A DNA stretch of 54,455 nt, counting the filler, from Basidiobolus ranarum (Eukaryota), in NCBI GenBank assembly GCA_040143965.1. It is 2 parts of 2 records of this genome, joined end to end, with 100 filler letters (N's around TTAATTAATTAA, not from the genome) between each part and the next. Parts side by side here need not be neighbours in the genome. Positions count along the whole stretch, not along the records: positions 1 to 27,256 come from JASJQH010000124.1; 1 more part is not named here. One strand, 5' to 3'. How positions within the stretch are numbered: the stretch's first letter is position 1; every line of letters starts with the position of its first letter. The notes under the pieces are model-generated. The model was not told the DNA's origin, ran no database searches, and worked only from the letters and a program-made list of their open reading frames with translations. Both the position numbers and the translations under genes were made by a program. This document shows positions 6,695 through 46,827 of this stretch, one piece after another.

Positions 6695-8399
6695 TTAATT
6701 ACAACATCGGCTTCTTTCTATCTCCTGATCTTCGTCATTCAAATAAATGCTTCCGTCTGTCTTGTGTCGTCTAGCCCTCTCCAGTTCAAATTTATTCTCT
6801 ACTAGCTGGCGTGCAATTTGTACAAAAATTTCGTCAACCCCTACACAGTAAAGTCAATTTAGTTTAACTTAGTTTCCACCTTTCCACCTTTCCCTTCTTC
6901 CCTCCCCCCCATCGTCATTGCTTCTCACCTTCATCGTCTTTGGCAGACACCTCATGAATGGTATATCCAGTTCCCACTACATTGTCCACGAATTCAGCCA
7001 CCTCATCTAACGACACTTCTCTCCGAGTATTAGCCAAGTCAAACTTACTACCAACGATGTGAATGACTATAGTATAACTGTGTGTTTAGCAAGACATCAT
7101 AGAAACCAAGGATACTTGAATAAAGATCCTCACTTAAATCTTCGGCCATGTTCTTTTCCAGTTCTATATGAAAGTGAAAGGAGGGAATGAAAAAACGATT
7201 ATTACTCAAGTTTGCTAACAACGTCTTGATTCATTCAAATCCTCAATTATTCGCGTACACTTTAATGTTAGTACGAGTACTAACACTTCAGGGTATATAT
7301 TCTCCTCTGAGTGCATCGTGTTCAGGATCCTGATGGTTCTATAGTAAATTTTAACTAACCTTTCAGCCAAGCCTCTATCTCCTCGAAACTTTTCCGGTTC
7401 GTAATATCGTACACAATGATCGCAGCATTTGCCTACGGAGTATTATTCAGGACGTTAGCAAAGGAATTGATTCTCAACTCAAGTTAAACCTACCCCTCTA
7501 TAATACATAGGTGCCTGTAATAAAGGACGTTAGTGAATGACATTAGTATCATAGAATATGCTGCAGAAAACACCATATACTCTCAAAGAGAGTTGAATGT
7601 ATCATGGATGTAGATTGATATCCGAAGAAAGGGATAATCTTAAAAGACATTCCAACCAAGGAAAAATCCAAGAACAAAAAGAGAAACCGAAATATTTCGA
7701 AATAGTAAATTACCATAGAACGAAAACGCTCTTGACCAGCGGTATCCCATATCTGCAATCTAACTTTACAATTATCTACGACCCTAAAAGCGTGCCAGTC
7801 AAAAAAGTAAAAGACAGTGACGTTGAGAAATCTGTCTCTAACATGATCGATACTCTACCCCTTGTGTGGTCTTCCACATTAACACTTCTCCCTGTGTATA
7901 GAACGCTTTCTTACCTTCTTTCTCACCAATTCCTTTTTTGAACTCACCTTTTGGTATGCATTCGTAGGTGGTTGACTTTTTTGTATAGTAAACTTACTTT
8001 ATGTTCTATTGGATTGGTCAGGAGTTGTTGAAGACCACATAAAGGGCAGAGTGGTCTGAAAGTTCAATGAACAAGAGAGTAGAAAAGATACTTCACCCTT
8101 TCTATCCTTCTCGAATACACTCTTGTCTACTTACAGTTTAGTTGTCATGAAAGAGGCACCGATGGTTGAGGAACAGTTTGGGGAAAACGTCTTTTGAACA
8201 TAACGAACCACAAGTGAGGTTTTTCCAACAGCTTGAAACCCATATGAAGGAGAAGGTTACAAAGGTTGGAAAAAGGAAGTCACAGTCAGTTAGTATCTAT
8301 ACCAAGGGATGATTTCAAGCCACTTCAAGAATATGAAATAAGTTGTTTACCTTGACTTCCTAATATAACCACTTTGGCTTCAAGCAAGTCGTTGTGCAT
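6695..8399 (-). CDS. Rab-family small GTPase (Rab5/Rab22/RabX1-like), 8 exons
   Basis: Spliced translation MHNDLLEAKVVILGSQAVGKTS...TIGASF...[32 protein letters not shown]...IVGSKFDL...EVSAK...SRCCN*. G1, G2, G3 and G5 boxes are present, with a C-terminal CC prenylation motif. Confidence 0.92.
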
Positions 8400-9298: not shown

Positions 9299-11643
9299 CT
9301 ATTCGTTATTTGCAGAAAAGAATTTAGGAAGGTTATCCGATTGTCGGAGAGTACTTGAGGAATCCTGGGGATAACTGGCAGGGAGAGGATCATCATATCC
9401 AACGCTTGATCGACTTGGCTGTGAGTGATAGCTAGTGTAAGCCAGTCTTGGTGAGAAGGTTGAAGTGGATAGATTGGTACTTGATCGTGTATCGGTCGTA
9501 TTGTCAATCAAAATCTCCTGTCGTAGACCAGCATTTTCACGAAGACTAACTATATATAGATCGTATGGAGATAAGTTTGCTCTGTCAGGTAGAGAAGTAT
9601 GAGAGACTCTATTGCCCCATGATTTATCATTAAAACTCGAATCATAACCACACTTGGAGGAGGAAGGTCTTGCGGTGATGGTTGTACCAACCACGCTGGT
9701 AGGAGCAGAAACCCGATTTTGTGTAACTTGAGATTGTGATAGGAGCCCAGGAGTAGCCGAAGGTAACACATCATTGATGTTTTCTGGCTTGATATACTTT
9801 GCTTTAATGATCATGATAAAACAAACGATGCCTCGCAGCGTCCAAACAAGTTGAGCCACGAGAATGAAGAAAATGCTTATTAGACCACACCAGTCCTTGG
9901 CATTGCCACCGGCTTTTACTGCCGGTAAATACGCAAACAGGAGTGCAACCATAGCTATCCTCATTGCCTGGAATGTTATCTCCCATCTATTTACGCTTTT
10001 ACTAACGTATGGATGAATCCCGACACAAGCGTAGAACATTGCAAACTCCAAGCATAGCATCAAAATTAATTGTATCAAACCATTACTTTTCCCAAACACC
10101 ACGATTCCAGCGAGTGTGATACGGTAACTGAAATGGATCCAGGAATACTGATAAGACGCTGGAGTATAGTCATTGTAAAGGGGACCAGACCTTAGCATAT
10201 GAAAAGTATCGATGAAAATGATTGATGTTGGTGAAATGTTCATCAAGTATACCATGATGCCAGCTATGACTCCCAAGCTTAGAAAGGCGACGAGTGCAGC
10301 TGCAATAATAGTTAGCCATACCGAATCATGAATCATCAGTTGATTGAAGGAAAAGAGAGTAAGGGGGAAATGGAACAAGATAAGAACTCTTAAGATGTTC
10401 CCTAGGAATAATAGAAACCAGGTTAGCAAAGAAATTTGTTGCCTTGATGAAACCAACAACAAACCTAGAGTGAAGGCAAACAGCTTCTTTTGAGAATAAT
10501 TGGCTCCATCAGATTTCATAACTAGTATAGCTACTCCATTGATGATCCCACTAGCCAATAGCACTGCCAGCATAGCAAACGACATTACTATGAGCAACGA
10601 GACTAGAAGTTCGTCAGGCTGAAGGTCCACAAAATGAGAGAAGAAAGCGATTCCATGATCGTCTGTGGTCAGCGGTGACGGTAAATGAGTACTAGAAGAA
10701 GCTCCAGGTGCTTTGATAGAACCATAACTAGTGATTGAATCCGCTAAAATTCCCATAGTAGAATGGAATCGGAAAACAAACTTTTGATGAAATAACGAGT
10801 AATCCAAATTGAGTAAAGCAGTGGCCACCACGAACTGAAGGTGGTATATTACTTTAAAAATCCCAGGGTATCTAAGACTCTGCATTCTTCCATCGATTTC
10901 GAAATTTGAAGTATACGTGAAAACATCGCGAACACAGCCAAAGAAATATCCGCAAAGCATAGTCAGAATAGGCAGTACTAGAGTCCATAGCACCACAGTT
11001 GCAATTGTGTCATTGTACGTCTCATCTGTTTGGCTCATGGTAGTGGCAAAGCAACCGTATTCTCCGCCATTCTCATCGATAAGGATAGCCATAATATGAA
11101 TATCAACAAACGGGGCGTAGTTAGGCAACTCCAAGATCTTGCGTATCATGAAATGAATGAGCTTCGATTGAGAATACAGACGAGATTTCGAAACAATCTT
11201 AGACTATACCTTATTGAGGGTGATATTCCCAGGTTTTGTAGGACACCCTCCCAAAGAAGGGCATAAATTTGAGTCAGTCACAGAACCTTTGGAATTTAGC
11301 GTGGAGACGATGTAAAGTGAAGTAGCTATACGGCCTAGTTGAATTGGAACATAATAATATAAGCGTTGAATATAAATAGCTCGAGATGTAAAAAAGCCAA
11401 ACCTTGTGTTTGGGTGGACGCTCCATAAAGTGTATCATTGGCAACACCGGTTACTCTAAGAGTAACTGTCCTATGAGCCAAATCCAATGTGACTGCCCCA
11501 TCAATCGGGTTCCAGGAATGGCGAGGGTCTCCGCAAAATTCGAATTTAGCGCCATACGCACTTTGAAAGAAAGAGAGCACAATAATAAGTTGAAAGTAAA
11601 GTCGAAATAAGCGAGATAGGTTAATGTTTTTTGAAGAAAGCAT
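9299..11643 (-). CDS. Fungal TRP-like / FLC (Pkd2-type) membrane protein with N-terminal ML-like domain
   Basis: Signal peptide, then a Cys-containing lumenal domain (exons 11643-11403 and 11334-~11210), then a multi-TM region with HLQFVVATALLNLDY and GPLYNDY motifs typical of fungal FLC/TRP proteins, and a Ser-rich tail. Probable in-frame intron at 10402-10464. Confidence 0.8.
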
Positions 11644-15151: not shown

Positions 15152-16460
15152 ATGCTGTATTCGGATGAACAAGAAGAATCATTCGCATTCTTTGATGGTA
15201 CGTTTTTCAGAAATTTCCACGGCAAAGACAAAAAGTCTTAGTATTTATGGCTATACTTTTGTTGGTTTTATGCAGAGCTGGACTCTATCTTAAATCAAGA
15301 CCTTCCATCCTCTGATATCAACAACGCGTTAGACGCCTACTTTAGTACTCTTGAACGAAACCTCGGTAAACACCTAATTGTATTTTCAAACTCTAAGCAT
15401 TTACTTATCTTCCTCTAAGACTCCGTCAATCGCACTGACGCACTAGCAACAATATGCTGTGCTCTAGTTGAATCCGCGTTGTTTGAAAGAAATAAAAAGA
15501 TTGCCGTAGAATATATAATCGATGAAGCATTTACGGTAATATGTTCAAGTAAACTACTGAAAGATTGAAGCCATACTAAAGAGCCAAACTTATAGTCCAC
15601 TCGTAATGTCAACATATTGTATACTGTTTTGTATTTTGCTGGGGAGATGTATTCTTTTTCACTAGATATGATGTTAGAACGTGGCATGATCTTTAAATTG
15701 ACTCAGGATCTTCTCATTAAAGGTAATTCTCATTCTATATCTTCTGCCTTCAGCTGGAGCATTGACACAATTTTTGAGTACAGTACCTGGAGATGGAAAC
15801 TTATTTTCTATTATGCTTTTACTCTGTGAATTATGCCAGTTTCATAGGTTACCTAACTCTGACTTGAAATTGCTGAACGAGACACTAATTCATAAATTGC
15901 TTGATATCGTGGAAGAAACCCAGTGTGGAGACGAATCTGTGAATTACACTGGTATTCAGTTGATTCTAACCATCAACTCGCAATTTACGGATCTACATCA
16001 AGAAAACGGAAACACAGTTATTAAAGTATTAAGCAATCGGTTTGAAACAAGTAAATCTTTTGGAGAAAATCTACTATTTATGATGAACCGTGGTGCTAAA
16101 CCAGACATTCAGTTATTGATTCTCAAACTGTTGTACGCTTTGTTTACCAACAATACGACGTATGACTATTTCTACACCAATGATCTTAGGGTCCTAGTAG
16201 ATGTAATTATACGAGAGCTGTATAACCTGTCGGACGAAGATGGAGAGTTGCGTAGAGCTTACCTTGAAGTTCTACCACCACTAGTATGTAATACTCAGTA
16301 TCCAGAGATTCTTCATAAGGCTCAACAGATCGTGTGTCTGTTGGAAGAATTAACTACCGAACAGGCACACAGAAACACTACTAGAGAAGTCCAGTTGATA
16401 GTGGCGAAAGTTCGTTCCGAATGCGCTCCTGTGTTAATTGCTGGTTTCAAAACTGACTAG
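15152..16460 (+). CDS. LDB17: Ldb17/Dip1/SPIN90-family Arp2/3 activator (DUF2013), 5 exons
   Basis: Four GT-AG introns join MLYSDEQEES... to the 15762-16460 ORF, which carries the family signature FYTNDLRVLVDVIIREL and FGENLLFMMNR. Confidence 0.82.
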
Positions 16461-19867: not shown

Positions 19868-21791
19868 ATGATTAGACAAATCAAAAACTTCTTGAAAACC
19901 GCTACTTCCAGTAAGTCTTCATTACTCGACTCATTATCTTTGGAATTTTTATTGTTGACGCTAACTCACTCTTCTCTCTTTATAATTCTACGTATAAAGT
20001 ACCAAACAGCGATCCACCTTCACCTATTTCTTCCAGCAATCCTTCTGGCGCTGGAAAATCTACTAACTTCGCGGCACCACTTCAACAGGAAGAGCTTCTT
20101 GTGGACCAAAACGCTATTTTTAAGCACCCTAAATATGCAGCTGATCCCAACCTTCCAATTTATCCTAACTTGGACAGATACCAACTTCTCAATAAACTTG
20201 GAGAGTAAGTAGTATATTTGAAATCGGTATATATACCCTCGACGTCTAACCTTTATGATTTTTTAGTGGAGCATTTAGTAACGTCTACAAAGCCTACGAC
20301 AGGTATCGTAGAAAATTGGTAGCTATCAAAGTAGTGCGCAAATTTGAGTTGAACTCACTCCAGGTAAATATTGGTTAATTTAATGAACGTTATCTTGCTT
20401 GATGTTAACATCTTGTGATCCTATTTAAGCGTGGTAATATCCTTAAAGAAGTCACCATCATGCGTACTCTAAATCATCCCAATATCGCTAAACTTCTCGA
20501 CTTTAAGGAGTCAAAGGACTTCTACTACCTGGTGTTGGAGTTGCTTACTGGTGGAGAACTGTTTCATCGGATTGTGAAATTAACTTATTTTAGCGAAGAT
20601 TTGGCTCGTCATGTGATTACCCAGGTGGCTGAAGGAATTTACTATTTACACGAAGAAAAGGGGGTGGTGCATCGTGATATCAAACCGGAAAATTTGCTCT
20701 TTGAGCCGATCCCGATGAAGTCAAGTACTGAAAAACCAGCTTCAGTAGATCGTTTTGACGAAGAGAAAGTCGATGAAGGGGATTTCATTGAGGGTGTAGG
20801 CGGTGGTGGAATAGGTGTAGTTAAGATTGCTGACTTTGGCCTTTCTAAGGTGATCTGGAATAAAGACACAATGACTCCTTGTGGTACTGTTGGATACACC
20901 GCACCAGAGATTGTCAAGGACGAAGGTTACAGTAAAGCAGTAGATATGTGGGCACTTGGGTGTGTCCTATACACCATGTTATGTGGTTTCCCTCCATTCT
21001 ATGATGATGACATCAAAGTTCTGACTGAAAAAGTGGCTCGAGGATATTACTCCTTTTTATCTCCCTGGTGGGATGATATCTCCGATTCCGCTAAAGATTT
21101 AGTATCTCGTCTACTTGATGTTAACCCTGAAAGACGTTACACGATTAACCAGCTATTAGCACATCCCTGGATCAAAGTTAAGAAATCCGTCCAATTTGAA
21201 CCAACAGTTAACGATATCAGCTCAGATTCTTCACTTCGTCATTTGCCTACCTCCCCCACTGGGTACCATCCCGAAGCGTCCTCAATATATCGCGCTACAG
21301 AGGAACATGTTAGTACTCCCTACCATGATGCACCCAGAACCCACGTACGTAGGGAGCACCATCCCATCCCGGTCACTCCAAACGTTTCGATTAAGGAAGC
21401 ATTCGATGTTTCCTACGCAATGCATCGTATGGAAGATGAAGAAGCTGGTAAACGTCGTATGCGCGCAATGCAAGAACAGTACGACAAAGCACAAGGGGTT
21501 GTTCCATTTGCACCATATTACCATCAAAGAGCACTGATGGATATCGTAGATAATGGCGGTTACGAGGAAGATATGAAAACCATCAACTCAGCGTTGAATA
21601 CTCAAATGAAAGATCCTTACCAACCACGTACGCGTAATATCGGTAAATCGAATCAACCACCAGCCATGCACACAGGTCGCCAAGTAGAGCAAAAAAGAGA
21701 GGGTAGACGAGCTGGCTTCGAATTGAATATGAACAACGCTACTTTACTAAGTAGAAGAAAGCAAAAGCATCCGGAGCAAATAGTAAACTAG
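19868..21791 (+). CDS. SRK1: CAMK-group MAPK-activated kinase, Srk1/Rck2 type, 4 exons
   Basis: Exons 19868-19910, 20000-20204, 20267-20363 and 20430-21791. Motifs: LGDGAFSNVY, VAIKV, HRDIKPEN, the Rck2/Srk1-specific DEGDFIEGVGGGGIGVVKIADFGLSK insert, and TPCGTVGYTAPE. Confidence 0.93.
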
Positions 21792-23134
21792 AATAATGAA
21801 GTATATATGTATGTATCTATCTATATACAACAAAAAATAGGGAATAGTATTAACAATATCCAGTATTGCATTCTCTCATCTACCTTGCCACTTAATGCAT
21901 AGCTGTCATGGTTCTTATGTATCAATAGCTTACGAAACCACATTCTCTATTCTAACCACCATTTCCATCTTTGCTGTGCCTAACACATCCATTCAATCCC
22001 AAAGAATCTATATATATAACCCAGCGAAGTGATGTCATTCTAAGATATTGTGTTTGCTGAATACTTCCCGAGTTCCTCACCATATCAAATGAACAAGATT
22101 CACATTGCTAATTCTTCACCTTACCTCACACTACTCATTCACTTTTTTTCATTTCCTCTTCCCCTTAATTCATTCATCTCACCCCACCCCACCCCTATTT
22201 TTTCTTAAGATATTTCTCATTTGGGCAGTGAATCCCTACATTCTAATGATTTCTATTCAACAAATAACCAACCTTGACCCAGTCTAGTCCACTGCAATCT
22301 GTTGTGTATATAAAGAAATAATTGATACTCCAATCAATTTGAATCATTAAACGAACCATTATCTATCCTGATTATCAGTTGATCCAACCCGAAGCAATCC
22401 GGTGACAAAGATGAGCACTCAACACTCCATTAAACTACGTTACCCGATCAAGCGTAGCATGAAGTCACTCCAAAAGCCAGAAGTTTTCTCGTAGCCAGAA
22501 AGCGAGGAGATGAGTAGTAGAAATTGGAGAGTAAAGATGAAACCCAAGCCCGAAACTCATCTATTTATCATTATTCGATTCGGGTTGTTTGGGAATTGAA
22601 TGGAATTTTTGGATCAAGTAACATTTGGGCAGCGGATGCGATTCTTGGTTCCATTGGAATCGAGAAACGTTGAGCCATCTGTCTCACTGGGTTTGTAAAA
22701 TACTTCACTTCCAATCCAATGGAAATTGAAGATGGTTCTTCCAGTTCTTGGGATCTACATACATGCTATAATAGCCTGGGATCTTCGTTCTTCAGAAATT
22801 GGATGTTTGGAAGTGCTTGTTGGTCATGATACATTAGGTTGAGTAATGTTTATTGAGATAATGCTAGAAAAGGAATCAATCCTTTGTAGTTGCGGATCTC
22901 CGATAGAACTTAAACGTTGGTTAGCTAGTGGAAAGGGAAGAGTTGCTCAATGAATATCAACCCTTCTCCTCATACTATATTAATGATGGTCACAAACTAG
23001 CACAAATAGTGGAAAGACAAAATGTTGATGAGTAGACTCATCCGGGTGTTTCGGATCAGTTGAATTATTACTTATTAAAATCAATAAACGAATGGGATAT
23101 AACAAAATGGTTAAAATGACGTCCAAATGGATGA

Positions 23135-24736
23135 TTAGGCGCTAAAGAAATGTTTTCGGATGTTAATGAACTGTGTGTTTTGCTATACTTGTATAAAGAC
23201 GGTACTTACATGGAGCAGTTGGCACTTCGACGCTTCTCCTTTTTCTCTTTCGGTTTCCCGCCAAACTGGATTGTACGGATACTAGGGGCAATGCTAGGCT
23301 TCTTCTTCAATCCAGGCTGTGAGAGTGCGGGCTGTGAGGCATGACCCCAGGGACGATGTATGTAGCTTTGTCTGATGCTTTCGTCACTACTGCGTGGTGT
23401 AGAAAATCCAGTTTCTTCACCTGCCTCAATATCAAGGCCTGTATCGTTCAGCTTGTGATCATTGCTAGATGCAATCGCCCCGGGATCTATGGATACGGTG
23501 GGAAGGGAGGGATGGTTTCCGGCATGTTGTGGGTCCGGTAAAATCGGGTTAACTATTGGCTCTTTAGATACTTCCATGTGAGGAAGAGTATCTCCATGGG
23601 CGTCATGGAAATCCTCGTTACAAGTGAAAGATTCGGCATCATTTCGGTGTTCCTTGTCATTCTCAGTAACTGACGAATGTGCCTCACTATTAGTATCCTG
23701 GTGGTTAGACTTTGGTGATGAGTTACGCGTATTATCTGGTCGAGGGCTATGGCTCATCCTTTTGAGTAGGTTGTTGGTACGATATTGTTCGTAAAGAATC
23801 GAGTAAGTTACTTCTTTGAGAGAATTTAAGTGACTATTTATGAGTACGTATTTTAATGGAGTAAAATCGCAGTGATCCGGGTTCAAACAATCCACCACTC
23901 CCCATGGATATCTTCGACCCAGGAATGTTGATGTTTTGTCGGATTTTTCGTTAAACTCATCGCTAGCAATGAGGCTAAACGGAAGCATCTCCCGAAGTTC
24001 AGCATTTTCCTTAATAATCTCTGTATCGTCATCATCTAAGTCGGGAAAGTTAAAGATAGGTATATCTTGTTGATGAATATCCCGGTTGATAGCTTCTTTG
24101 GCCCGTTTCAAACCAGCAACTGTCAAAGTATCAGCTTTACCAATCACAGGAATAATATTCACTCTTTTACCGAGTTTCCTCATGAGAGTAACATCTGCCT
24201 CGGATAGACCAGTATCACTTGGTGGCAGAAAATATAGGCATACATGAACCTGTTCTTCTTTCGGTTTGGGATTACGCTTTAACTTGGACTCCTAAAAGAA
24301 CAATAAAAATTTAGTACATCAAGTTCCATTTATCTTTTCAATTCTTCAAGTCAAAAAAGAAACGGTTCTTCATTCTGTTGTATTCCAAAATATAAAAACT
24401 GACCTCGGCGAGTTTCAATTCTAGTTGACCTTCGATATACCTTAATAGAAAATTACTCTGCTCTTCTAACGTAGCGTCTTCCACGAAGCCTGGAGTATCA
24501 ATCAAGGTAATAGCAAATTTGATTCCCTCCTCCTGTGCTAGTACACGTTTAGTGGTCAGACCAATAGTTTTTCTGATAGGGATATTCTCCGTTTCGACAA
24601 ACCGTGTGTCACGAGTGAGATTAAGTGAGTGATAAAAGGTTTGAAGGAAAGTGGACTTGCCCAAGCCAGAGAAGCCTGCCACTAGCAAATTAAAAGGTGT
24701 AGCAACATTTCTTCTACGAAAACTAAGCGTGGACAT
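23135..24736 (-). CDS. Septin GTPase, 3 exons, predicted C-terminus ...KKEKRRSANCSIA (CaaX)
   Basis: Exons 24736-24404, 24291-23210 and 23141-23135. G1 GFSGLGKST, G3 DTPGF, VHVCLYF, G4 GKADTLT and GRRYPWG are present. The last intron (GTAAGT...CATTAAC...TTTAG) is predicted, and the unspliced ORF ends at 23206. Confidence 0.9.
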
Positions 24737-26214: not shown

Positions 26215-27256
26215 CTACGACCAAGGATTGTATAGGCTCGATTGGCTGGACGGACTTGCAAACTTCGATTCTCTCTTGTGCCAGTCCGTTTGAGGATCTG
26301 GAGACGCTGGTGAGCTGTGAAGCGTCTGATAGTGCTTAGACCTTTGTTGGACCGGAGACCACATCCCTCCTTCCATTTGAGATCGATCATAACCTCGCAT
26401 ATTAGGTTCCGTATGAACGCTTTCATCGGTCGAAGGGTCATCATTTTCTTCGTTATATTCTGCTGAATTATCAACAGGACAATACAAAAGTCCGGTTGAT
26501 TCTTCTGAATGGGCCTTTTTGTCATTTGCTATGATACTGTGTGTGCGGCTATTCCCATATCTCTGACTGGTGGTGGATTCTATCTGTTTTGTGCTTACGG
26601 CTGAATAGGAAATAATAGTACTTTTACCTTTGATGCTTTGGTTCTCATTTGGTTTTTGGGTGGGTGATGATACTGTAATGACCGGGTAGTTATAGTCGCC
26701 ATGGACTAGCTGCCGAGCGCACTCATAATCATCTTCTACATTGTCCGAGTCATCAACATCCGGGAAATCCAAGCTTATGCTGTCCATTTGACTCTGTAGT
26801 AGGTACGGGTCTGCTTTCAATGCAGAATCGGCTGAGGGAATCCAGTACTTAGTCTGCCCCCCGTCAACGTAGCGAAGACCTGCGAGAATACGCTGGTTTC
26901 GACCGGGCCCTGCTGGTGCGATTCCTTCAGCTGGTTCGAAAGCACGATAGTTGAATTGGTCGCCAGAATAGGTTTCACGCGAATCTTGAACAATATCACG
27001 TAAACCTAATGCATCCCGAAATGCATGCGGAAGAGTCATACGACCAAAATGAAAATCGTAGTTGTTGTAATCTTTGTATGTGAACGAATGCCTACGTATT
27101 TTCACGTAGCTGCTTAGTAAATCTAAAAATCATATGCTTGGAGATATAAACCAAATTCTCACCAGTGGCCGATGGCGGCAAATATCATCTCGAAACAAAT
27201 CAAAAAATCTTGAATGGCAACTGCAAGTTGATCAGCATTGAAATGAGCATCTACAT
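26215..27256 (-). CDS. TMEM184/OST-alpha (DUF300, Hfl1-like) protein, 3' part only
   Basis: Exon 27256-27163 (..AVAIQDFLICFEMIFAAIGHW), intron 27162-27092, then HSFTYKDY...HAFRDALG...AGLRYVDGGQTKYW, which matches the fungal Hfl1/TMEM184 C-terminal region. The 5' end is lost at the N spacer. Confidence 0.82.
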
Positions 27257-27356
27257 NNNNNNNNNNNNNNNNNNNNNNNNNNNNNNNNNNNNNNNNNNNN
27301 TTAATTAATTAANNNNNNNNNNNNNNNNNNNNNNNNNNNNNNNNNNNNNNNNNNNN
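27257..27356. other. Artificial assembly spacer with six-frame stop linker
   Basis: 44 N + TTAATTAATTAA + 44 N = exactly 100 nt. Confidence 0.97.
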
Positions 27357-27896
27357 CATAATCAAACTTGGATTTTAATCAACTTACCTGATGATAGAAA
27401 ATCAATTGGCTGTCAATGGGTGTTTAAAGTTAAATACAACTCTGATGGCAATATAGCAAGGTACAAGGCTAGACTAGTAGCCAAAGGCTATTCCCAAACA
27501 TCAGGAATAGATTATATAGAAACTTTTGCTCCTGTAGCAAAGTTTGATTCAATTTACATTAATGTTATCAATTTCAGCTAAGTATCAGTTTACTATACAT
27601 CAAATGGATGTTAAAACTGCTTTTTTGAATGGTGAGCTTGCTGAGAAGATCTATATGGACCATCAGATGGTTTTGTGGACTCAGAAAACACTCTATGGAT
27701 TAGTAAGATTGAAACTTTTTTGGAAACACCCCAATTCCAAAAGAGCAATATTGACTGTAGTATCTACTTCAGACCAGATAAGACAAACCCAGTTTTATTA
27801 GTCTTACATGTAGATGACCTTATTATAGCAACAATGACTTGAAGACTTTGAAGAAAACCAAATCCAGCTTATCTGCCAAATTCAAAAGGACTGATC
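27357..27896 (+). mobile_element. Ty1/copia reverse transcriptase (RVT_2) pseudogene fragment
   Basis: Translates with frameshifts to [12 protein letters not shown]...[26 protein letters not shown] / HQMDVKTAFLNGEL / LHVDDLII. It is cut at KFKRTDL, before RNase H. Confidence 0.92.
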
Positions 27897-29416: not shown

Positions 29417-31705
29417 TTACATATTGGAGAGTTTAAGATTAGAAACATCAGGAGCCATCTCATTTTCCGATCCAACATAACGGATAATGAATGCATATTC
29501 CAGGGCTTTATCCTTAAGGTAATCATAACGTCCAGAGAGACCGAAATGACCAGAGCCCATACTGGTTTTATTTAAGATCACTCTTTTATCAGAGTCTCCT
29601 TCAGCTCCCTCAGCTCCATATTCACGTAATTTAGCCGCCCATTTAGCGGGCTCCCAGTAAGAGACACGAGGATCATTGAGGCCAGCACGAATCAAGATAT
29701 TCGGGGTTTTGACGCCTCGAGCGATATTCTCATAGGGAGAATAGGAAAGCATGTAGTCAAAGGTCGCCTCATCTTCCGGATTTCCCCATTCTTCATACTC
29801 GGCTATGGTTAAAGGTATGCTAGCATCCATCATAGTATTGATCACATCCACGAATGGGACACCTGCGATAGCTGCGCGGAAAAGATCAGGTCGAAGGTTG
29901 ATTACACATCCCATAAGCATGCCTCCAGCGCTTCTACCTTCAATAGCTAAGCGACTGGGACTTGTGTACTTCTGGTCAATGAGGGCCTCAGCGCAAGCAA
30001 CAAAATCGTTGAAGGTGTTTTTTTTGTGCATAAATTTGCCTTCAACTTCGTACCATTTACGTCCCATCTCTGATCCACCTCGAATATGCGCAATGGCATA
30101 GACAAATCCTCGATCCACGTAGCTAAAGATCGAAGATGTAAAGTCAGGATCCATGGACAGTCCGTAAGAGCCATATCCGTATAGCATGCATGGATTACTT
30201 CCATCCCCCTTGAACATCGAGGTCTTGTAGACAATAGAGACGGGGACTCGGAACTCGCTTCCTGGTGAGGCGGTAGATGGGACCGAGACATAAATGCGTT
30301 TCGTGGTGTAATCGTTGCTCTTAAAGCCTCCCAGAACCTCCACTTGTTTGAGAAGACTGCGCTCACGAGTGCTCAGGTCGTAGTCAAATGTTTGTTCGGG
30401 GGTAATCATGGTGGAGTAGGTGAATCTCAGTATGCTATCTTGGTATTGCGAATGCTTGTAGTCATTCTCAACGGTGTAGACATCCTGGTCGAATTCAAGA
30501 TAGTGTTGGTCTTTGACTTGAACATCCGATCCATGCTCCAAGTTCAGAATTCGGATTCGGGTTAGTCCCTGGGAACGCTCGAACAATGATATTCCCTTAG
30601 CCAGTGGCAACATCTCCTCAATGTATGCGTCTTCACTGTAAGCCAACAACGGTTTCCAATACTCGGATTCAGTGTTGTCTAATGTACACCAACATAGTAA
30701 GTTGTTCAAGTAACGTTGATCTCCCTTTTGATTAGTCAATACAGCAAACTTGTCATCGGCAATATGATCTATTTCATAAAGAACATCGAACTTGCGTTTC
30801 TGAAATAATGTTGGTGTGCTTGATGCTTCATCGGCATTCAAAAAGAGAATTTCACTGGTCTGAGAACTCGCAGTGTGAATAAAGATATATTTGGAGCTGG
30901 AACTCTTGCTTACATCTACTTCGAATTTCTGATCCGGGTCACTGAATACCACCTCGTCCTCTTCGTAGGAGGAGCCGACAATGTGTTTACGTACCTCGTA
31001 GGAACGTAAGATATCATCAAGTACAGTGTAGTAAACTGTTTTGTTATCGTTAGCCCACACCAATGGATAAGAAGCTTCTGGAATAGAAAGACCAGCTCCA
31101 GACAAGACTTCTCCAGTCTCCAAGTTCTTGAAATAAACGGTGAATTTCTCAGCACCAGTAGTATCCAGGGAATAAGCTAACCATTTGTTATCCGGACTAG
31201 GACTGAACTTTCCTAACACTATTTGCTTCTCGTCGAGTTTATTCAAGTCCAACAATATCTCTTCCTCAACGCTACCAACTTTACGACGACACTGTATGGA
31301 GTATTGAAGGCCTTCTTCTGTACGTACATAATATTCGTAATCTCCACGGCGATAAGGAACACTCACATCAGTTTCTTTGATGCGAGCAACCATTTCTTTG
31401 TAGATTTGCTCACGTAACTCAGTGGTATCTTCAAGAATAGCGTCAGCATATTCGTTCTCTTTCTTAAGGTAATCCAGGATTTTGGGACTCTTTTCGGAGT
31501 TTGCATCTTTTAACCAGTGATAATTATCAAGAAACTTTCTTCCATGGTATTCATGGTAAAGTTCCTCTTTGGGAGTGATCGGTGCTTTAAGACTTTTTGT
31601 TGACATGTTGAAGGTTTGTATTGAACCTATACGAACTGAAGTGGAAATAAGTTGTTTGATATGAGGTCCTTTCGCAAGACAAAGTCTACGCAACAACTGG
31701 GACAT
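29417..31705 (-). CDS. ptrB: Oligopeptidase B (protease II, peptidase S9A), intronless, 762 aa
   Basis: DNYHWL N-terminal motif, beta-propeller region, LYGYGSYG, HIRGGSEMGRKWY, catalytic GRSAGG (Ser), NDPRV (Asp), GHFG (His), and EYEEWGNP. Confidence 0.93.
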   Translation of the reverse strand: MSQLLRRLCLAKGPHIKQLISTSVRIGSIQTFNMSTKSLKAPITPKEELYHEYHGRKFLDNYHWLKDANSEKSPKILDYLKKENEYADAILEDTTELREQIYKEMVARIKETDVSVPYRRGDYEYYVRTEEGLQYSIQCRRKVGSVEEEILLDLNKLDEKQIVLGKFSPSPDNKWLAYSLDTTGAEKFTVYFKNLETGEVLSGAGLSIPEASYPLVWANDNKTVYYTVLDDILRSYEVRKHIVGSSYEEDEVVFSDPDQKFEVDVSKSSSSKYIFIHTASSQTSEILFLNADEASSTPTLFQKRKFDVLYEIDHIADDKFAVLTNQKGDQRYLNNLLCWCTLDNTESEYWKPLLAYSEDAYIEEMLPLAKGISLFERSQGLTRIRILNLEHGSDVQVKDQHYLEFDQDVYTVENDYKHSQYQDSILRFTYSTMITPEQTFDYDLSTRERSLLKQVEVLGGFKSNDYTTKRIYVSVPSTASPGSEFRVPVSIVYKTSMFKGDGSNPCMLYGYGSYGLSMDPDFTSSIFSYVDRGFVYAIAHIRGGSEMGRKWYEVEGKFMHKKNTFNDFVACAEALIDQKYTSPSRLAIEGRSAGGMLMGCVINLRPDLFRAAIAGVPFVDVINTMMDASIPLTIAEYEEWGNPEDEATFDYMLSYSPYENIARGVKTPNILIRAGLNDPRVSYWEPAKWAAKLREYGAEGAEGDSDKRVILNKTSMGSGHFGLSGRYDYLKDKALEYAFIIRYVGSENEMAPDVSNLKLSNM

Positions 31706-32069
31706 GTTTAGGGAATATTAATTGTCAAGTATGGACCTAGTACGCAAATACGTGGCGATTGGCATAATCTGGTTTATTTTTAATCAGCTTACAAGTGGAT
31801 GGTGGATAGATGGTGTTTAGAACAAAGGTTGTTTTTTTGATTTTTTTACTTGAGCGTAATTGACAACATAAATACATCTTATTTTTATAGATATTGATAG
31901 TTTAAACCTGAAACGTAATGAATACACAAGATAAAATCGAACTACACTATCACAGCCCCCATAGAAAAGGATCTCGTTGATAGAAGCCATGCAAGGAGAG
32001 CTTCAACTATTTTAAGGAGGGTTACTTGAGGCGAAATTATTATTAAGGGAAGGATAGAGTGGCTAAGAT

Positions 32070-35000
32070 CTACCACCGTCTAGGTTGATTGTTGTAAGAA
32101 CCGCGTGAGTTTCCTCTACCACGATTTACAACTGGATACCATCCTTGATCACCACCTCCAGATTGGTAACGATCGTTGTGTTGTCTAGGTGGTCGGGAAT
32201 CATATTGCTGGGAACGGTATCCACCTTCCGATCGATTGTTATCATAACTGTCATGATAACTGTTATTGTTGTTACGATAACCACGATTTCCACTGTTGTA
32301 ATCTTGATTATAATCTCTTGATTCATGGTAATCATTGTTATATCCTCCTTGATGGTTGTTGTATCCACCACGATAGCCCCCACGGCCCCCGCGTCCGCGA
32401 CCACCGCCTCCACGAGAACCACCGCGACCACCACGTCCACGACCGCCATAACTATCATACGAATCATAGTGGTTGTTATAACCATCGTAACCACCATTAC
32501 CACCACCTCCATAGTCATTGTAACTATTTTGCTGCTGTCCATACGATCCATTGTTGTTGTAATGTTGCGACCAATTTTGTTGGCCATAACCGCCACGTCC
32601 TCTTCCTCTGCCCCTACCACGTTGATTACCACCAGAGCGTACATAGTCATAATCAGCAGGACCTAACACACGTTGTGGAAGTTTAACACCGGGTAGAAGA
32701 CAACCAATTCTAGGATCACCATGCTTTGGCAACCTAGGGAGGAAGTAATAAACACTTTCACAAAATAAGGAATGTTAGAAATGACAACAGAATATCCTTG
32801 CCAAGAAGATTAATCTTACCTGATCGATTTATCGCTGGGAATATCCAGTAACCCTTGATCAACTAGAGGTGAGGCAAAGGTAGTGTGAGGAACACAGTTT
32901 GGATCTGGTGCTACTTCACCAGCCATACAACCACTGAGTCTTGTATCTAAAATCATTTTCTAAATTTCAAAAGTCCACGTTAAACCTTGATCTACATTAT
33001 AACCAAACCAATGCTCTGCTTACCTGGGTCAAGTCTCGTGTGCTGTACAGAGCACACAATGACTCATACAACGGATTCTCCTGCCCAACAAAGAGAACCT
33101 CACAACCTCGCGTATTTCTTGCTTCTTCACTGTCGCTGAGTTTTGGATATACTTTCTCAACGGCGTTTAAAAGTCTACCTTCTTCGATGAAAGGCAACAG
33201 AGCGACCCCTTGCCAAGCTTGTCTTTTACCATTCAAGTCAACTTCGAAGTCTATAGGGTAAAAGTCAATGATTTCCGAATCCTGATCTGTCATAAGTTCA
33301 TGGAAAGCTTCAGGTAAATGCGATTTACTAGCAGCGGGCAACACACCCATCAATTGTTCGTAGGGTTTGAATGGAGTACCCAAATCGAATTTAATATCCA
33401 AATGCTGGATATCCAAAAAGTCGGAAGCGAATGGTGCAAAATGGAAGGGGTAAAACCATTTCCAAGAAGGGCATCCAAGATAGTAGTACTCCAAGACCCA
33501 AGATAATCCTTCAACATAGGAACGAACAACCTGTTGGCGGAACTCGTAATCGTTTAATTCAACGCCGAATTTACTTCTGTAATAGCGCTCTTTGAATCCA
33601 GACTCCCATAGCTTGACCTCATCATATGGCTCATCATCATCGACGTCGACAGGCTTGGGAGGCTCACTCTTGATCATTTCTTCAGCTTTTCTTTTGACGG
33701 GGGCGACACTAGACATCATTACCTCTTCCTCTTCTTCCTCTAGATTGGATCCATTGTCCGATTGCGTAGTTTCACTTGGAGAGTCTTTCGCGAGGCCAAT
33801 CTCAGCTTTTAGCATTTGAGCAGCGCTCAGATTGGCACTATGAATGTTGGAATTAACGGCCTGCGACACCTCGGGGGGAGCATCGTAGCTAGAATGTTGG
33901 TTATCTCTAGCTTGTTGTTGTAGCTTTCTTCTTTTGTTATTCTTAGCAAATCTCTCTTCTTTCTCGCGTCTCTTTTGGAAAGTCAACTCTTCCTTTTTTC
34001 CTAACTCTGACATGATGACTTGAGCTCTTTCGAGGTTGACCACACCACCGTCAGTTAAATATCCACCCATAATGTCAAGGTTTCGTTTCCAAATATCAAT
34101 TAAATCATCTAAAGCTCCTTCACGAATCTCAAGTGAAGGGAGATGCGGTAAGAAATCGTTTCCTACGAAGAAGCACAAGAACACCCAATCATCGATGGCT
34201 CGCTCTAGATCAAATTGGAAAGACACGCTCTCATGTCTGAGCTCAGCATCTAAATACTCGCGAAGTACGTTCACATGAAGAAATACGAATGGTTTTTCAA
34301 CTTGCTCCTTGGGTGCCTTTTCATCAAACTCTCCTTGTTTGACTCTGGCCTGTCCTATGATAGTAAAGAACACCGATTAGTCGCAATAATTGAAAAAGTC
34401 AAAAAAAATTAGAGTATCTACCTGTACATTGGTCAGCCTTATGACCCGGTTGCTTGCAAATATGGCAAGTGAATTTTCCGCTTTCGTTAAAGAACACGTC
34501 TTCTCTGAGTACCTTGAAGTAAGGCTCATGAGTAGCCAAAGCCAACATGATAAGATCGGCATCCTGTTCGAGGGTAAAGACTTGTAAATTTGATGAAAGA
34601 AATCAACACATATGACTCTACTTACCAATCCATACAGAACATGCTTAGTGTTGGGATCGTGATCTGGGTGGGTACGTTGACCTCTAATAAAGTCCATAAT
34701 TTTGTGCTCTCCTTCTCCGGGAACACTGGCGTCAGAGATTATAATTTTGACCTGTTAAAATATCCAAATCGTTAGACAGATTACCTCCCATAAGAATAGA
34801 CGCGAATTACATACATTCTTCCAACTAGGATCAGAATTTAGTCGACTGGCAACGTAGTACCGGAGAGAGTTAGCAAGATTCTCCATGAACGGTGTACCTT
34901 ATTGGGGATTGAATCAATTATTGAACCTTGAATAGCCATTAAAACCGTTTTGGATAGCATACCTGGAGTAATACAATTTGAATCGAAATGAGACTTTTTC

Positions 35001-36001
35001 TCAGGAAGATCGGCTTCTTGAAGCTGGCCCTTGGCTAGTGAGGAAAATTCACACCAGTGAGTATTAATTGCAACGGGACATGGATATATTCAAACAGTAC
35101 CTATTAACTCATCCACAGTCTTTTTTTCAGACTCTGCTTTCTCACTAGATTCTCTAGCAGTACGAAAACGTCTAGATCTTTGCTGATTCATTTTTGCACG
35201 TGGAGCAACACCATCTACAAGCGAAAGATATCAATTAGACATGGTGTCTCTTATAGGAGAAACGAGTGGGAGAAAAGAACAAAAACCGCAATTGATGTAG
35301 TAAATAAGCTCTGAGTGAGTTCGATACCAGCAATTTCAGTGACTATTCTCGTGGTAAGAAAAAGCTCACTTCACTCTTTTTTACTCAAAGCTCAATTTCA
35401 CCCAACCCACTTGCATCCAATAAGAAATCTATCTCTATGATGTCAAGATGGGAGACTGCTGAGGAAGAGTCACGCCTTACTTTTCTACTTTGTTATACCC
35501 GCGAACTATTACACAGGAAACGGTTTTTGTTTCAAAATCTCTTAAAATTTAAAGCACACGTACCAATTGCCATATATAAAATTTTTCTGGGTCGAATCAT
35601 GCCCATGATACGATCTAAGTACTTAAACACTTCAACCATCATCTCCGCTTCAGTTTCAGGAGCAGGCTTAAAAATCAAGATAAAACATTGAGGAAAAAAA
35701 CATTAAAAGAACACCGTTGAAACAAACGAAAATGTTGGTTAGATCTTGGTAAATTACAAGCGCAATATGACTTTGTTAATTTGTAAACAACAATTACTTT
35801 GTTTTCGGGGTGACAACACGGATGTACAATGCCGTTCATATCTAAGTAAAGATTATCAAATTCAACGCCGTTCGGATTTGGTTTAGATATATCTACAGGA
35901 ATCTTTATCCCATTGATCTCGTGTGGTTGTTCTTCCACAACTTGGTCAGCGATTTTTGGGTATTTGTTTGATAACCAACGAAATAATGCAGGAACCCCCA
36001 T
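32070..36001 (-). CDS. RAT1: Nuclear 5'-3' exoribonuclease Rat1/Dhp1/XRN2, multi-exon
   Basis: [78 protein letters not shown] and WQGVALLPF, followed by an RGG/YN-rich tail. Confidence 0.96.
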
Positions 36002-36886
36002 TTTACACAGACTTTAAAACAGAAGGTATGAGGGTGAGAGTAGACGAAGAGTGAAGGTTGATTGACTCTTCTCAAATAGAAAAAATCAGCGACCAGTTAG
36101 TTTGATATTTCCCAAATCTATCAAAAAAGGGATTTTTCAGAGGGTGGTTTTTTTTCTTGATCAAATTTTCTACGCGTTGAACGCAGCATCATGATTATCG
36201 AGTTGACTGCTTTTTATTATTGTTGTAATGCACTTCATGTAATTACTAGTGAATACTAGAAACAAACCGTGATTCGTTCACAATAACGATATATGCTAAC
36301 TCATTGATTCCGGACCAATCCCGATCTCTTTGGAGTTCGAATTTATATTTGATGTTGATTCATTTGTTTGTTTGATGTTTGAAATATGATTGAAAAAAAG
36401 ATCAAAGAAACCAACTCAGATAGACAGTGCTAAGGGTGGTTGGAGACCGCACTTATGCTGCAGCATCCCTCCATCTTCCGAAGAAGCGAAGGAAATCTAT
36501 CAGCTTAATGATATTATCATTCTTCATCGCTGGTTTAGTTGTGGTAGGGATTACGGATGCCGTGTCGGCTAATTTAAAAATCTCTAGACCCTGCCAGATA
36601 TTATGGGTTTAACATAATTAGTACGGAAAAATGATTTTTCGTTGACGCTATCCACCACTCCACCCCACCCAAATTCTAGACTGTATAATAATGGACTGGA
36701 TAATGATGGAGCATGATATATATAACGCAAGTGTCAAACAACTGCTGCAAATTATTTTGAGGCGTAACTTGAAAGCGGGTTTATTGCTAGGTTGCGGGAT
36801 GGTTCCTAAGATATGAATGGTATGATATGTTGCTGATTAATTAGATGCTAAGCAAATCAGATCATCTAAGCAGTGTTCGCAGGCCC

Positions 36887-37598
36887 TCAGCTCATTGCCC
36901 AGGCGTTTTCCTTTTTGATTTGCTCTTTCTCTTCCTCGGTCAAGTCATCTTCGAGTTTGAATATTTCCCTGATTTGTTCTGGTGTCTTACCTTATATATG
37001 GCATAAAATGCATCAGCAGAGCTACTTAGCCAGCATCTACAAGCAAATACCCCTACCTTTAATTACATTTGCCACAGTCTTGCACCCCACCTCTCTAATT
37101 CCAAAAGTTGAACTAAATTAATCGATATCCAACAGCTGACACACTCTGTCACTTACAGTAATGATTTAATATCCAAGTAATTGGCAGCCTGGGGTTGGAG
37201 GGGAAATCAGTAACAATCCTTGGGGTGTTCCAACAACAATCAATTTACCATGACAATAGCAAAGAGTAACTCCGAATCAACAGCTGCGAACTCCCTATCC
37301 CAATCATCGATTTCAGAAACGCCGGTATCTTCCCACTCTGTAATTTCCTCACACACATCGTTCTTGTGATATTCACAGAACTCCAAAACCTATCATATTG
37401 CAGTTAGTCTAGCGGATATAAATAATGGCTGTGACTTCGACAAACCTTCTTTAATACTTCCCCAGTCACATTGGGCAAAGGAATTGGTTGCTCAATCTCT
37501 CCAATGTCCTCCAGCATATTGCCGATAAGCAGCGAATGCTTTGCTACTTCTTTATCAACTCGAAACAACTGTGAATCACTACTCTTCAATATCACCAT
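36887..37598 (-). CDS. SKP1: Skp1-family protein (divergent), 5 exons
   Basis: Spliced MVILKSSD...[21 protein letters not shown]...WDREF...[34 protein letters not shown]...ENAWAMS*. Confidence 0.9.
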
Positions 37599-38367
37599 GT
37601 GTAAGCAAACGGAACAAGTGGAGGAGCGTTCTTGTGAACAAGTCAAGCAGAATCAATGGGCAAGAGCCGTAGGCAATATCAACATATATAACGAAACGAA
37701 TGGGAGTCACCAACCAGTAAAGCTTCCGGTAAAGCCTCCGATGGAGAAATATCCGGTTTTCAATCTCCGATGCATTGGTGTCTTCTATTTAGGTGGGATG
37801 AGGCAGTGAATGGATTGCCAAGGTTATACTCGACGTATCTCAGGCATAAACTTCAACCACTGATATGCTATGTATATATTCCCACCGCACATACCGCCAA
37901 TACATGTAGTTCTAGCTATATACAGCCCAAGTGATTGATGGAGTTCTAGTTTGGAAGTTGATTTCTAATTTCAGCTCTAGTCCGGTATCTTAGATATCTT
38001 ACCTTTTGTAGATCAGGTAATCGTCTTTGACTGTTGAGAATCAGGATCACTGATTATCGGAGTATCTGAGTATCATTGGCCAGATCTCTCCTATTTTGTT
38101 CGATAATATATACACATTTGTTTCGTGCTATTGTTCTTTTTTTCTGACCATCTTATTTTAGCGTATTAGTCAGGCTCTACTCACCTCTCTCCTTATTTTC
38201 TTTACTTCAATATTTGTCATTAGCCTGTTACCTCCCTTCCCTGGCATTATTAACTCTCTTCACAACCATCCGCATTTGCCTCTTAACTCCTCAAATTATT
38301 TGTATAAAATCTCTTAGAAATATCCACAACTCTTTCTTTTTTCTGTCATTCCAAACTTGTATCAAAC

Positions 38368-39286
38368 ATGGGCTGTTGCGCTTCTCAACCCGCTGACGAT
38401 GATGTTCACAACAATCCGGATAGAGTGATACCTAATGCCGGTTCGCTATACTTTCTATTCAAGTATCTATATTTTCTCATTTTAACGTTTCTTTTTGTTT
38501 CTCATTTAGGAAATAAACCATTGAAGAAAAAAGTAATAACATGGACTTCCGAGACACCTCTCACCTTAGCACAACTTCAGGCCCAGCGTGATGGTTTCTG
38601 GGACACTGCGCCTACTTACGAGGTTCGTTAGTCTTTTGCGTTTATATATTACTGTTCAAGTACTCAATCATTTTTTTTAGGGTCGTCGGGATGTTTGGGA
38701 AGGTTTGCGTACAGCCTGTGAAACCAATGATCTTATTCACGCTCAAGCCATTGTTGATGGACTTCGTCTATCAGTTCCTACCGGTCACTTATCTGATGGC
38801 TGTTATGATGAACTCGGCAATCGGTATATAATTCCACAATATTGCTTTGCCGAGCCAACCAATCTGGTTATGGTCAGCTCAGAGTCCAACGTAAAGCCTC
38901 CAGTAGAACTACCAGCGCCTGAATATGAACTAGAGGATAAAAAAGTCAAGCCACAGGAGGAAGTATCGGACACATCTAAACCTCAACCGATCCCAGTAAT
39001 TACCGTAACTGAGCACGCACCTGAGCCTGAGGTGGAGGCATTCGGCGATGGGTCCCAGGAGCTAACAGTCAGATTGAACACCGGTAAAGATGTTCGCATA
39101 AAAGTCAGCCCTTCAGAGGATTTGCACAGCGTCAAAGCCAAAGTATGCGCTGCTGAGAGCGTCGATCCTAGTACTGTCAATATAAAGTTCATTTATTTAG
39201 GCAAGATTTTGGATCAGAGCACCACTATTGAAGGGACCAAAATTCCAGCCGGTGGAGTCATACAAGCTCTAGTAGTGCTTGTGTAG
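38368..39286 (+). CDS. UBTD1/2 (DC-UbP) ubiquitin domain-containing protein, 3 exons
   Basis: MGCC lipidation start, LQAQRDGFWDTAPTYEGRRDVW and GCYDELGNRYIIPQYC (UBD), and a C-terminal ubiquitin-like domain (VRLNTGKD...FIYLGKIL). Confidence 0.9.
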
Positions 39287-43000: not shown

Positions 43001-43281
43001 AGAAGAAGCCACGCAAGAAGGAAGAATCTTTTGAAATTCTGGACAACATGGCTCGTGTTGTTCCCTCTCAGCTTCAGTACATCACATTTAAGGAAGACTC
43101 TCGTTACACACCTCTTAAGAAGGGAGTTGTAGGGGGTATTGTGATGTTGAAAGATACAAAGCCCGGAGCTGAAGAAGAATTAATGGCACTCAGTGTTCCC
43201 ACTGTAGAAGCCTCATCATCCACTACTGATGAAGAAGAAGCAGCACCACCCGAACAGTTTGAATACCCCTTTGAGAATTAA
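40057..43281 (+). CDS. RPN2: 26S proteasome regulatory subunit Rpn2/PSMD1, multi-exon
   Basis: MSVLTSA/GVISLL..., [30 protein letters not shown] repeats, [26 protein letters not shown] and terminal PPEQFEYP. Confidence 0.97.
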
Positions 43282-44050: not shown

Positions 44051-44559
44051 TTAGTTGTTGTATCTAGTAATTTGATCTACGGTGGTAGTAGTAATGGTGA
44101 GGGTTTGAAACAAATCTCTGAATCAATGAATGACAAAAGATAGTAAATGAATAAAAATCGATCTTGATTGGTTAATTGAATGGCTCATTTGGATTGCGTT
44201 CTCGATTTTGTAAAGGGGAGAATGAGCTACTCTTTCGCCTTAATCAAGCTTATTTTCTTGTCTATTTACTGCGTACACTTTCTTTGTGCTGTTTCTAGTG
44301 ACTTCTTAGTTCAGAGTTTTTTTCTTCACTCTCTTAATTGAATTAACCAAAACATTTCACCTAGTAGAGCCAGTGCTCAATAGGTGTCATCTTGTTTTCC
44401 CTTTCTTCCTGACCATACTTGACGTCAAGATTACTTTTGGGGGTTTTTTCTTCTGGATTAATATTCTAAAAGCTCTCTACCTCCTTGACGTGAACAAGAA
44501 ATATACATCTAATATATATACATACATAGTATTCATCATTTTTTACTTGCGATTCGACA

Positions 44560-46827
<2,268 letters not shown>

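Follow-up and report, generated by a model that had tools for sequence, protein, structure and literature searches.

A gene of Basidiobolus ranarum encodes a septin whose C-terminus, once a short terminal intron is removed, would read as a lipid anchor, and we think it fairly probable that the protein is a farnesylated, divergent Cdc11-like septin with a long flexible tail in place of the coiled coil. The accepted routes of septins to membranes are polybasic regions and amphipathic helices, to which transmembrane isoforms have more recently been proposed as an addition (PMC10690161); the end predicted for this one on removal of the terminal intron, ...KPKEKKEKRRSAN-CSIA, would join a polybasic stretch to a CaaX box. 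The gene lies in a window of 54,455 nt, by which we mean the whole stretch of DNA analysed here (assembly GCA_040143965.1), and positions 1-27,256 of it correspond to JASJQH010000124.1. The features of the gene and of its neighbours are collected in Table 1.

Table 1. Features of the septin gene and of the remainder of the window, with the introns used for comparison.
Feature	Position	Strand	Length	Remarks
Septin exon 1	24404..24736	-	111 codons	ATG at 24736-24734; residues 1-111 of P0001
Septin intron 1	24292..24403	-	112 nt	phase 0; GTCAGT...TTCTTTTAG; donor GTCAGT; GC 0.26
Septin exon 2	23210..24291	-		remaining GTPase domain and septin unique element, then 183-aa polar tail; ends ...TGC TCC AT
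Polybasic stretch KPKEKKEKRR	23227..23256	-		just upstream of S-A-N-Cys
Candidate prenyl-acceptor Cys, TGC	23215..23217	-		residue 470 of 473; position -4 if spliced, -3 if unspliced
Septin terminal intron	23142..23209	-	68 nt	phase 2; donor GTAAGT 23209-23204; branch-like CATTAAC 23168-23162; acceptor TTTCTTTAG ending at 23142
Septin exon 3, coding part	23135..23141	-		C GCC TAA: completes ATC (Ile), adds Ala, stop
Protein kinase, first intron	20205-20266	+	62 nt	donor GTAAGT; gene converges on the septin gene
Protein kinase, second intron	20364-20429	+	66 nt	donor GTAAAT
TRP-like channel	9302-11203			Pfam
SPIN90/Ldb17	15702-16457			Pfam
Prolyl oligopeptidase	29420-31717	-	766 aa	one ORF; Pfam
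XRN 5'-3' exonuclease	33000-36013	-		several exons; Pfam
Skp1	37407-37652			Pfam
UBD/ubiquitin-like protein	38308-39283			Pfam
UBD gene intron			58 nt	donor GTTCGT
Proteasome subunit RPN2	40830-43278	+		Pfam
RPN2 intron			61 nt	donor GTATGT
AMP-binding enzyme	48053-50023	+		four exons; Pfam
AMP-binding gene, first intron			68 nt	donor GTATGT
AMP-binding gene, second intron			77 nt	donor GTAAAT

The gene encodes a septin. Its first exon includes G1 (GFSGLGKST) and G3 (DTPGF) and matches the Pfam septin profile PF00735 over profile positions 4-96 (E 5.1e-16), while the second exon matches positions 100-275 of 280 (E 1.3e-56); each clears the 26.2-bit cut-off by a wide margin. Intron 1 was placed by the continuity of the profile, which leaves off at 96 before it and resumes at 100 after it, the two aligned parts being exactly 3 residues apart. 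The joined coding sequence (24736-24404 + 24291-23210 + 23141-23135) yields 473 aa plus stop and agrees letter for letter with P0001, a protein retrieved by database search (KAK9766789.1, 'Cell division control protein 11 [Basidiobolus ranarum]', 473 aa, 100% identical) that ends KRRSANCSIA. G1 GFSGLGKST, G3 DTPG and G4 GKAD are all found in P0001, and the P-loop motif definitions behind them (G1 GxxGxGKS/T, G3 DxxG, G4 xKxD) agree with those in the accessible text of PMC8801916. The coding region of the polar tail begins at about 23754 and runs downwards on the minus strand. Left unspliced, the ORF reads ...AAC TGC TCC ATG TAA GTA... and ends NCSM*, its stop TAA being supplied by the intron donor; the spliced product is ...KPKEKKEKRRSANCSIA, in which NCSIA replaces NCSM*, and the Cys occupies the fourth position from the C-terminus only if the intron 23209-23142 is spliced. 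The initial annotation had called the gene a septin, had located the donor, branch site and acceptor of a 68-nt terminal intron and had deduced a spliced product with a polybasic stretch and CSIA, all of which are borne out by the Pfam matches and the joined coding sequence; the intron is not hidden, as had been claimed, since the public 473-aa model already uses it.

How credible is this intron? We compared it with seven introns of the window that are anchored by Pfam or domain continuity (an ambiguous junction in the XRN gene was left out). The anchored introns measure 58-112 nt with a GC content of 0.26-0.34, all seven have a T-rich tract and AG at the 3' end, and in five of the seven a branch-like match to [CT]T[ACG]A[CT] stands 16-22 nt before that end; septin intron 1 has its sole branch-like match at 28 nt, and no such site was found in the UBD intron. 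The septin terminal intron matches the anchored introns in length, GC content, branch distance and acceptor: it is 68 nt long and has a GC content of 0.32 (exon 2: 0.44), some 22 nt separate the branch-like A of ATTAAC from the 3' end, and no AG precedes that of the acceptor TTTCTTTAG once the branch-like site is passed. A point against it is that exon 2 ends in CAT before the donor, whereas AG precedes the donor in five of the seven anchored introns. The hexamer GTAAGT alone is not enriched, occurring 33 times on both strands of the whole window against about 35 expected. The full configuration is rare: of 198 ORF ends in the window (ORFs of 60 codons or more), 4 combine an overlapping GTAAGT with a YTRAY branch and with a first AG that makes the intron 45-150 nt long. 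Besides the septin end, these are two ends that belong to the kinase intron 20205-20266 and the ORF end at 50577 (-).

The kinase intron serves as a positive control for the septin terminal intron. It has the sequence GA|GTAAGT, lies in phase 2 with an in-frame TAA and thus shares the geometry of the septin intron; its removal restores the G-loop of a kinase whose ORF at 20409-21788 (+) matches Pkinase with an E-value of 1.8e-63. Because the geometry is the same, an ORF end overlapped by the donor can be taken as normal for a phase-2 GTAAGT intron here and denotes no special device. As for the acceptor, 2 of the 15 AG dinucleotides found 40-400 nt downstream of the septin donor give an end of CaaX length (IA at 68 nt and IL at 213 nt). 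The second of these, the AG at 22997 (-), would give CSIL, and Leu at X makes a geranylgeranyl-type CaaX; the tract before it (TATTTGTGCTAG) is a weaker pyrimidine run than the one at 23142. Judged from its signals and from the gene-prediction model, the terminal intron is probably real and normally spliced, and as such forms part of the explanation that we favour.

The tail that leads to this end is polar and rich in proline, and the proposal of a long disordered tail in place of a coiled coil holds up. Over its 183 aa, 77% of the residues are Ser, Pro, Thr, Asn, Gln, Gly, Asp, Glu, Lys, Arg or His and 9.8% are Pro; the longest Pro-free stretch covers 43 aa and is almost devoid of hydrophobic residues, and the 18-residue segments with the best hydrophobic moments contain Pro. 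Composition, Pro spacing and hydrophobic moments revealed no coiled-coil-compatible segment in the 183-aa tail, whereas the canonical relatives P0006 and P0069 have long ...EKRQELLAKEEALR...-type helices at the place of the polar tail of P0001. An AlphaFold2 model built on a four-row alignment reached a mean pLDDT of 32.8, too poor to serve as evidence, and was set aside.

With Ala at the X position of the CaaX box, farnesyltransferase is the predicted enzyme. The prediction for CSIA is positive: the motif belongs to the yeast training sets of prenylation-positive and of cleavage-positive sequences in supplement file 6 of PMC9231725 and scores 1 with all four predictors in supplement file 7, and its Ras-based score in File S4 of PMC10320760 is 14.3 compared to 16.8 for CVIA. 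For Basidiobolus the call is thus a prediction from the motif that draws on yeast data.

A second B. ranarum septin, P0003 (KAK9767649.1), has 466 aa, is 36% identical to P0001 overall and has the annotated end ...KIKRNAKRRISNCVM. Its terminus KRRISNCVM shares KRRxxNC with the KRRSANCSIA of P0001. Anchored on the last Cys, KRRSANC and KRRISNC are identical in 5 of 7 positions (permutation p 5e-6), a level that only one other pair of 7-residue windows in the two tails attains; the 50 residues ending at the last Cys, this 7-residue end included, contain only 8 identities, and the remainder of the ~180-aa paralog tails can barely be aligned. The charge is distributed in the same fashion in both proteins. 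Within the 20 residues before the Cys, K+R outnumber D+E by 8 to 2 in P0001 and by 6 to 1 in P0003, and outside this basic end both tails are net acidic, the other 159 tail residues of P0001 comprising 13 K+R and 24 D+E. The retention of KRRxxNC while the rest of the tails has become barely alignable points to selection on the polybasic-Cys end of both paralogs. P0001 and P0003 have separate orthologs in B. meristosporus (P0002, 85%, and P0065, 59%, respectively), and the duplication is therefore older than the split between the two species. Both B. meristosporus models are partial and cut just after the GTPase domain, and so are uninformative on the tail.

The public annotation ends P0003 at CVM without a terminal intron, yet splices P0001. 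Either an intron was missed in P0003, or Cys-x-Met is the real end that the two proteins have conserved; the Cys-Val-Met-stop of P0003 fits an unspliced phase-2 AT|GT(A/G)A donor and a true three-residue end equally. The second possibility underlies the alternative that fares best, namely that the terminal intron is unused or rarely used, that the protein ends ...RRSANCSM and that the conserved feature is a CaX end which may be weakly prenylated, be S-acylated or act through its charge only. Both paralogs do read N-C-x-M-stop when unspliced, the annotation does leave P0003 in that form, and in the accessible text of PMC11152559 the 16 CaX ends assayed on a Ydj1 reporter were farnesylated at levels from <25% to >90%, 8 of the 16 at >50%. 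The tested set in Table S1 of the same paper does not include CSM and CVM, though, and native prenylation of CaX ends is described there as remaining to be determined. Moreover, since a conserved phase-2 AT|GT(A/G)A donor gives a Met codon and a stop, two spliced genes would be expected to share CxM as well, and the perfect donor, the branch-like site, the T-rich first AG, the typical intron length and the completion of a validated CaaX box would all have to be coincidence. We regard a three-residue end as unlikely on these grounds, and prefer the spliced, CSIA-terminated protein.

Regulated splicing and retention could alternatively toggle the septin between a lipid-anchored CSIA form and an unanchored CSM form, as the initial annotation had envisaged. 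We consider such a switch improbable, and give just as little credence to its extension to a farnesylated Basidiobolus septin pair, with anchored and free pools produced by splicing or retaining the 68-nt terminal intron. The stop read upon retention is immediate and has no junction downstream of it, from which we infer that the mRNA could be stable, and a septin precedent exists in UNC-61a, a transmembrane-domain isoform that arises from a unique first exon according to the accessible text of PMC10690161. But every phase-2 GTAAGT intron brings an in-frame TAA with it, as the one at 20205 in the kinase gene does, and the TAA is no sign of design; the signals of the septin intron resemble those of constitutive introns, and CSM may itself be a weak prenylation substrate. 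The claim of splice control finds no support. Retention does yield CSM*, as proposed, but the loss of the anchor that was to accompany it does not follow: because some CaX ends are farnesylated in the reporters of PMC11152559, as far as its accessible text goes, retention need not remove the anchor.

Outside the two B. ranarum paralogs, none of the septins examined has the polybasic-Cys end. Two word-index database searches returned 97 proteins, 95 of which lack Cys at -4 or -3, the exceptions being P0001 and P0003. An exhaustive search added 147 further cluster representatives, three of which have Cys at one of these positions (...FCFD, ...CLRI and ...CREI), none with a basic run before the Cys; besides P0002, P0003 and P0065, this representative search found no relative above 47% identity. 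A metagenome scan with a four-protein alignment gave 80 loci, 79 with an ORF that reaches a stop, and Cys stood at -4/-3 in none of the 79; many of these loci are genomic with introns, and the ORF end is therefore not always the protein end. The best identity in the scan was 49%, and no Basidiobolus ortholog was found among the 80 loci. Many of the Cdc11-like metagenome loci (L040, L041, L057, L060, L073-L078 and others) have an ORF end ...KSVEGGxxx followed by GTAAGT, which suggests that an intron is conserved at one position shortly behind the GTPase domain, its donor again supplying an in-frame TAA. A search with the tail only among shorter proteins produced 23 candidates, none with an E-value of 10 or better. 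The weakest account, a combination of chance and gene-prediction artefact in which a fast-evolving disordered tail holds a Cys without lipid role and intron-like signals happen to lie in the 3' UTR, strikes us as very improbable: such tails do evolve quickly, the tail-only search found a homolog nowhere, GTAAGT occurs at chance frequency in the window and genome-wide we estimate that a few such coincidences are to be expected, but KRRxxNC is kept at the extreme end of two old paralogs with barely alignable tails (p 5e-6) and the basic charge is concentrated beside the Cys.

P0001 is Cdc11-like by best match but lies outside the canonical Cdc11 clade in quick trees. The best relative of solved structure is yeast Cdc11 (5ar1), with 193.9 bits against 190.2 for the next, a weak margin; P0003 scores 177.5 bits against Cdc11 (5ar1) and 152.3 against the next, and P0004 has Cdc11 as its best solved match with 289.8 bits. 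We built quick ML trees of 40 and then 31 rows selected from the proteins retrieved (SH-aLRT without bootstrap, midpoint-rooted, long branches flagged). The four Basidiobolus rows group together in these trees (SH-aLRT 99) and are sister to a Mucoromycota septin clade (SH-aLRT 90) that includes Rhizopus P0052, Calcarisporiella P0101 and Linnemannia P0102/Haplosporangium, as well as P0098 and P0107; no Cys-xxx or Cys-xx end occurs among the six rows of this sister clade. A branch with a support of 99 splits this Basidiobolus and Mucoromycota group from the canonical Cdc11-like clade, which holds Basidiobolus P0004 and P0005 together with Syncephalis, Glomeromycota and Dikarya Cdc11-like proteins; in these quick, midpoint-rooted trees P0001 is not a member of the canonical ortholog clade. 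Like Cdc11 and Group 3 septins, P0001 has G1, G3 and G4, the septin unique element and a short N-terminal extension, and Cdc11 is the best solved relative of both P0001 and P0003; unlike them, P0001 is devoid of a coiled-coil C-terminal extension. Short N-terminal extensions are ascribed to Groups 3 and 4 in the accessible text of PMC8801916, and P0001, whose G1 begins as early as residue 21, has a very short one. For Group 5 (AspE-type) the features in the same text are the absence of a coiled coil, a longer N-terminal extension and clustering with AspE; of the first two, P0001 shows the former and lacks the latter. The Mucoromycota sister septins form the nearest clade, and several have similar N-termini and short N-terminal extensions, but they have no Cys end and their identity is only ~41-47%. 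The absence of the end from the other septins examined, taken together with the tree, suggests that the polybasic-Cys tail is a Basidiobolus innovation in a divergent Cdc11-like lineage.

The surroundings of the septin gene offer some further observations. The ~1.3 kb that separate the kinase gene from the septin gene converging on it (21800-23135) contain no ORF of at least 75 codons, a long interval for this compact region. A small GTPase gene at ~6695-8256 (-) has many short exons, a Ras/Roc Pfam match on the ORF 7552-7854 and a last ORF that ends ...ERSRCCN*, which resembles a Rab-type double-cysteine geranylgeranylation end. At 27309-27798 (+), two overlapping ORFs match RVT_2, one over profile positions 1-65 and the other over 65-100; the frame is broken between the two, and they look like a decayed fragment of a copia-type retrotransposon. 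ORFs with no Pfam match at E 0.001 are found at 26218-27129 (-) (304 aa), 44530-45573 (+) (348 aa) and 52734-54455 (+) (574 aa), the last of which runs off the end of the window.

From the sequence we infer splicing in vivo, lipidation of the Cys and membrane targeting, which together suggest the following mode of action for the farnesylated septin. Farnesyltransferase would attach a farnesyl group to Cys470, -SIA would be removed and the new C-terminus methylated. The farnesyl group and the adjacent basic patch could then hold the end of the ~180-residue flexible tail on an acidic membrane, and this lipid tether would substitute for the coiled-coil C-terminal extension of canonical Cdc11-type septins. 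The second Basidiobolus paralog probably shares the architecture. Another conceivable role for the basic stretch is that of a nuclear localisation signal combined with a lamin-like CaaX box. In K-Ras4B and Rho-type tails, a lipid and a basic patch hold proteins on membranes, and the likeness lies in a run of Lys/Arg directly upstream of a C-terminal Cys-aliphatic-aliphatic-X box; the difference is that the septin anchor, a predicted one, terminates a disordered tail of ~180 aa on a filament-forming septin and does not directly follow a small G domain. A septin parallel is found in UNC-61a of C. elegans and its predicted relatives, which have a hydrophobic membrane anchor specific to one transcript form (accessible text of PMC10690161). 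There the anchor, which has been tested by experiment, is an N-terminal transmembrane helix encoded by an alternative first exon, whereas here it would be a C-terminal lipid and is predicted only.

Phrase searches of the accessible literature for prenylated, farnesylated, geranylgeranylated, lipidated, palmitoylated, myristoylated or lipid-anchored septins found none, in agreement with the initial statement that no established class of prenylated septins is known. Among the papers listed as mentioning septin, CaaX and prenylation together, no title concerns a prenylated septin. The terms CaaX, prenyl, farnesyl and palmitoyl are absent from the main text of the septin-evolution papers PMC11238149 and PMC8801916; in PMC6333174, CaaX and prenylation terms occur in the reference list only; and PMC10690161 describes transmembrane-domain septin isoforms and, in its accessible text, uses CAAX only as a membrane marker.

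The treatment of the two paralogs, with P0001 spliced and P0003 ended at CVM, implies that terminal micro-exons which complete a CaaX box may have been missed by annotation elsewhere. If the prediction is true, the B. ranarum protein would be the first example of a septin that a lipid attaches to membranes, and covalent lipid anchoring would join the polybasic, amphipathic-helix and transmembrane modes of septin attachment. The coiled-coil extension would then be replaceable by a long flexible lipid tether, and the tail would represent a natural counterpart of the artificial CaaX tags that are used to force proteins onto membranes.
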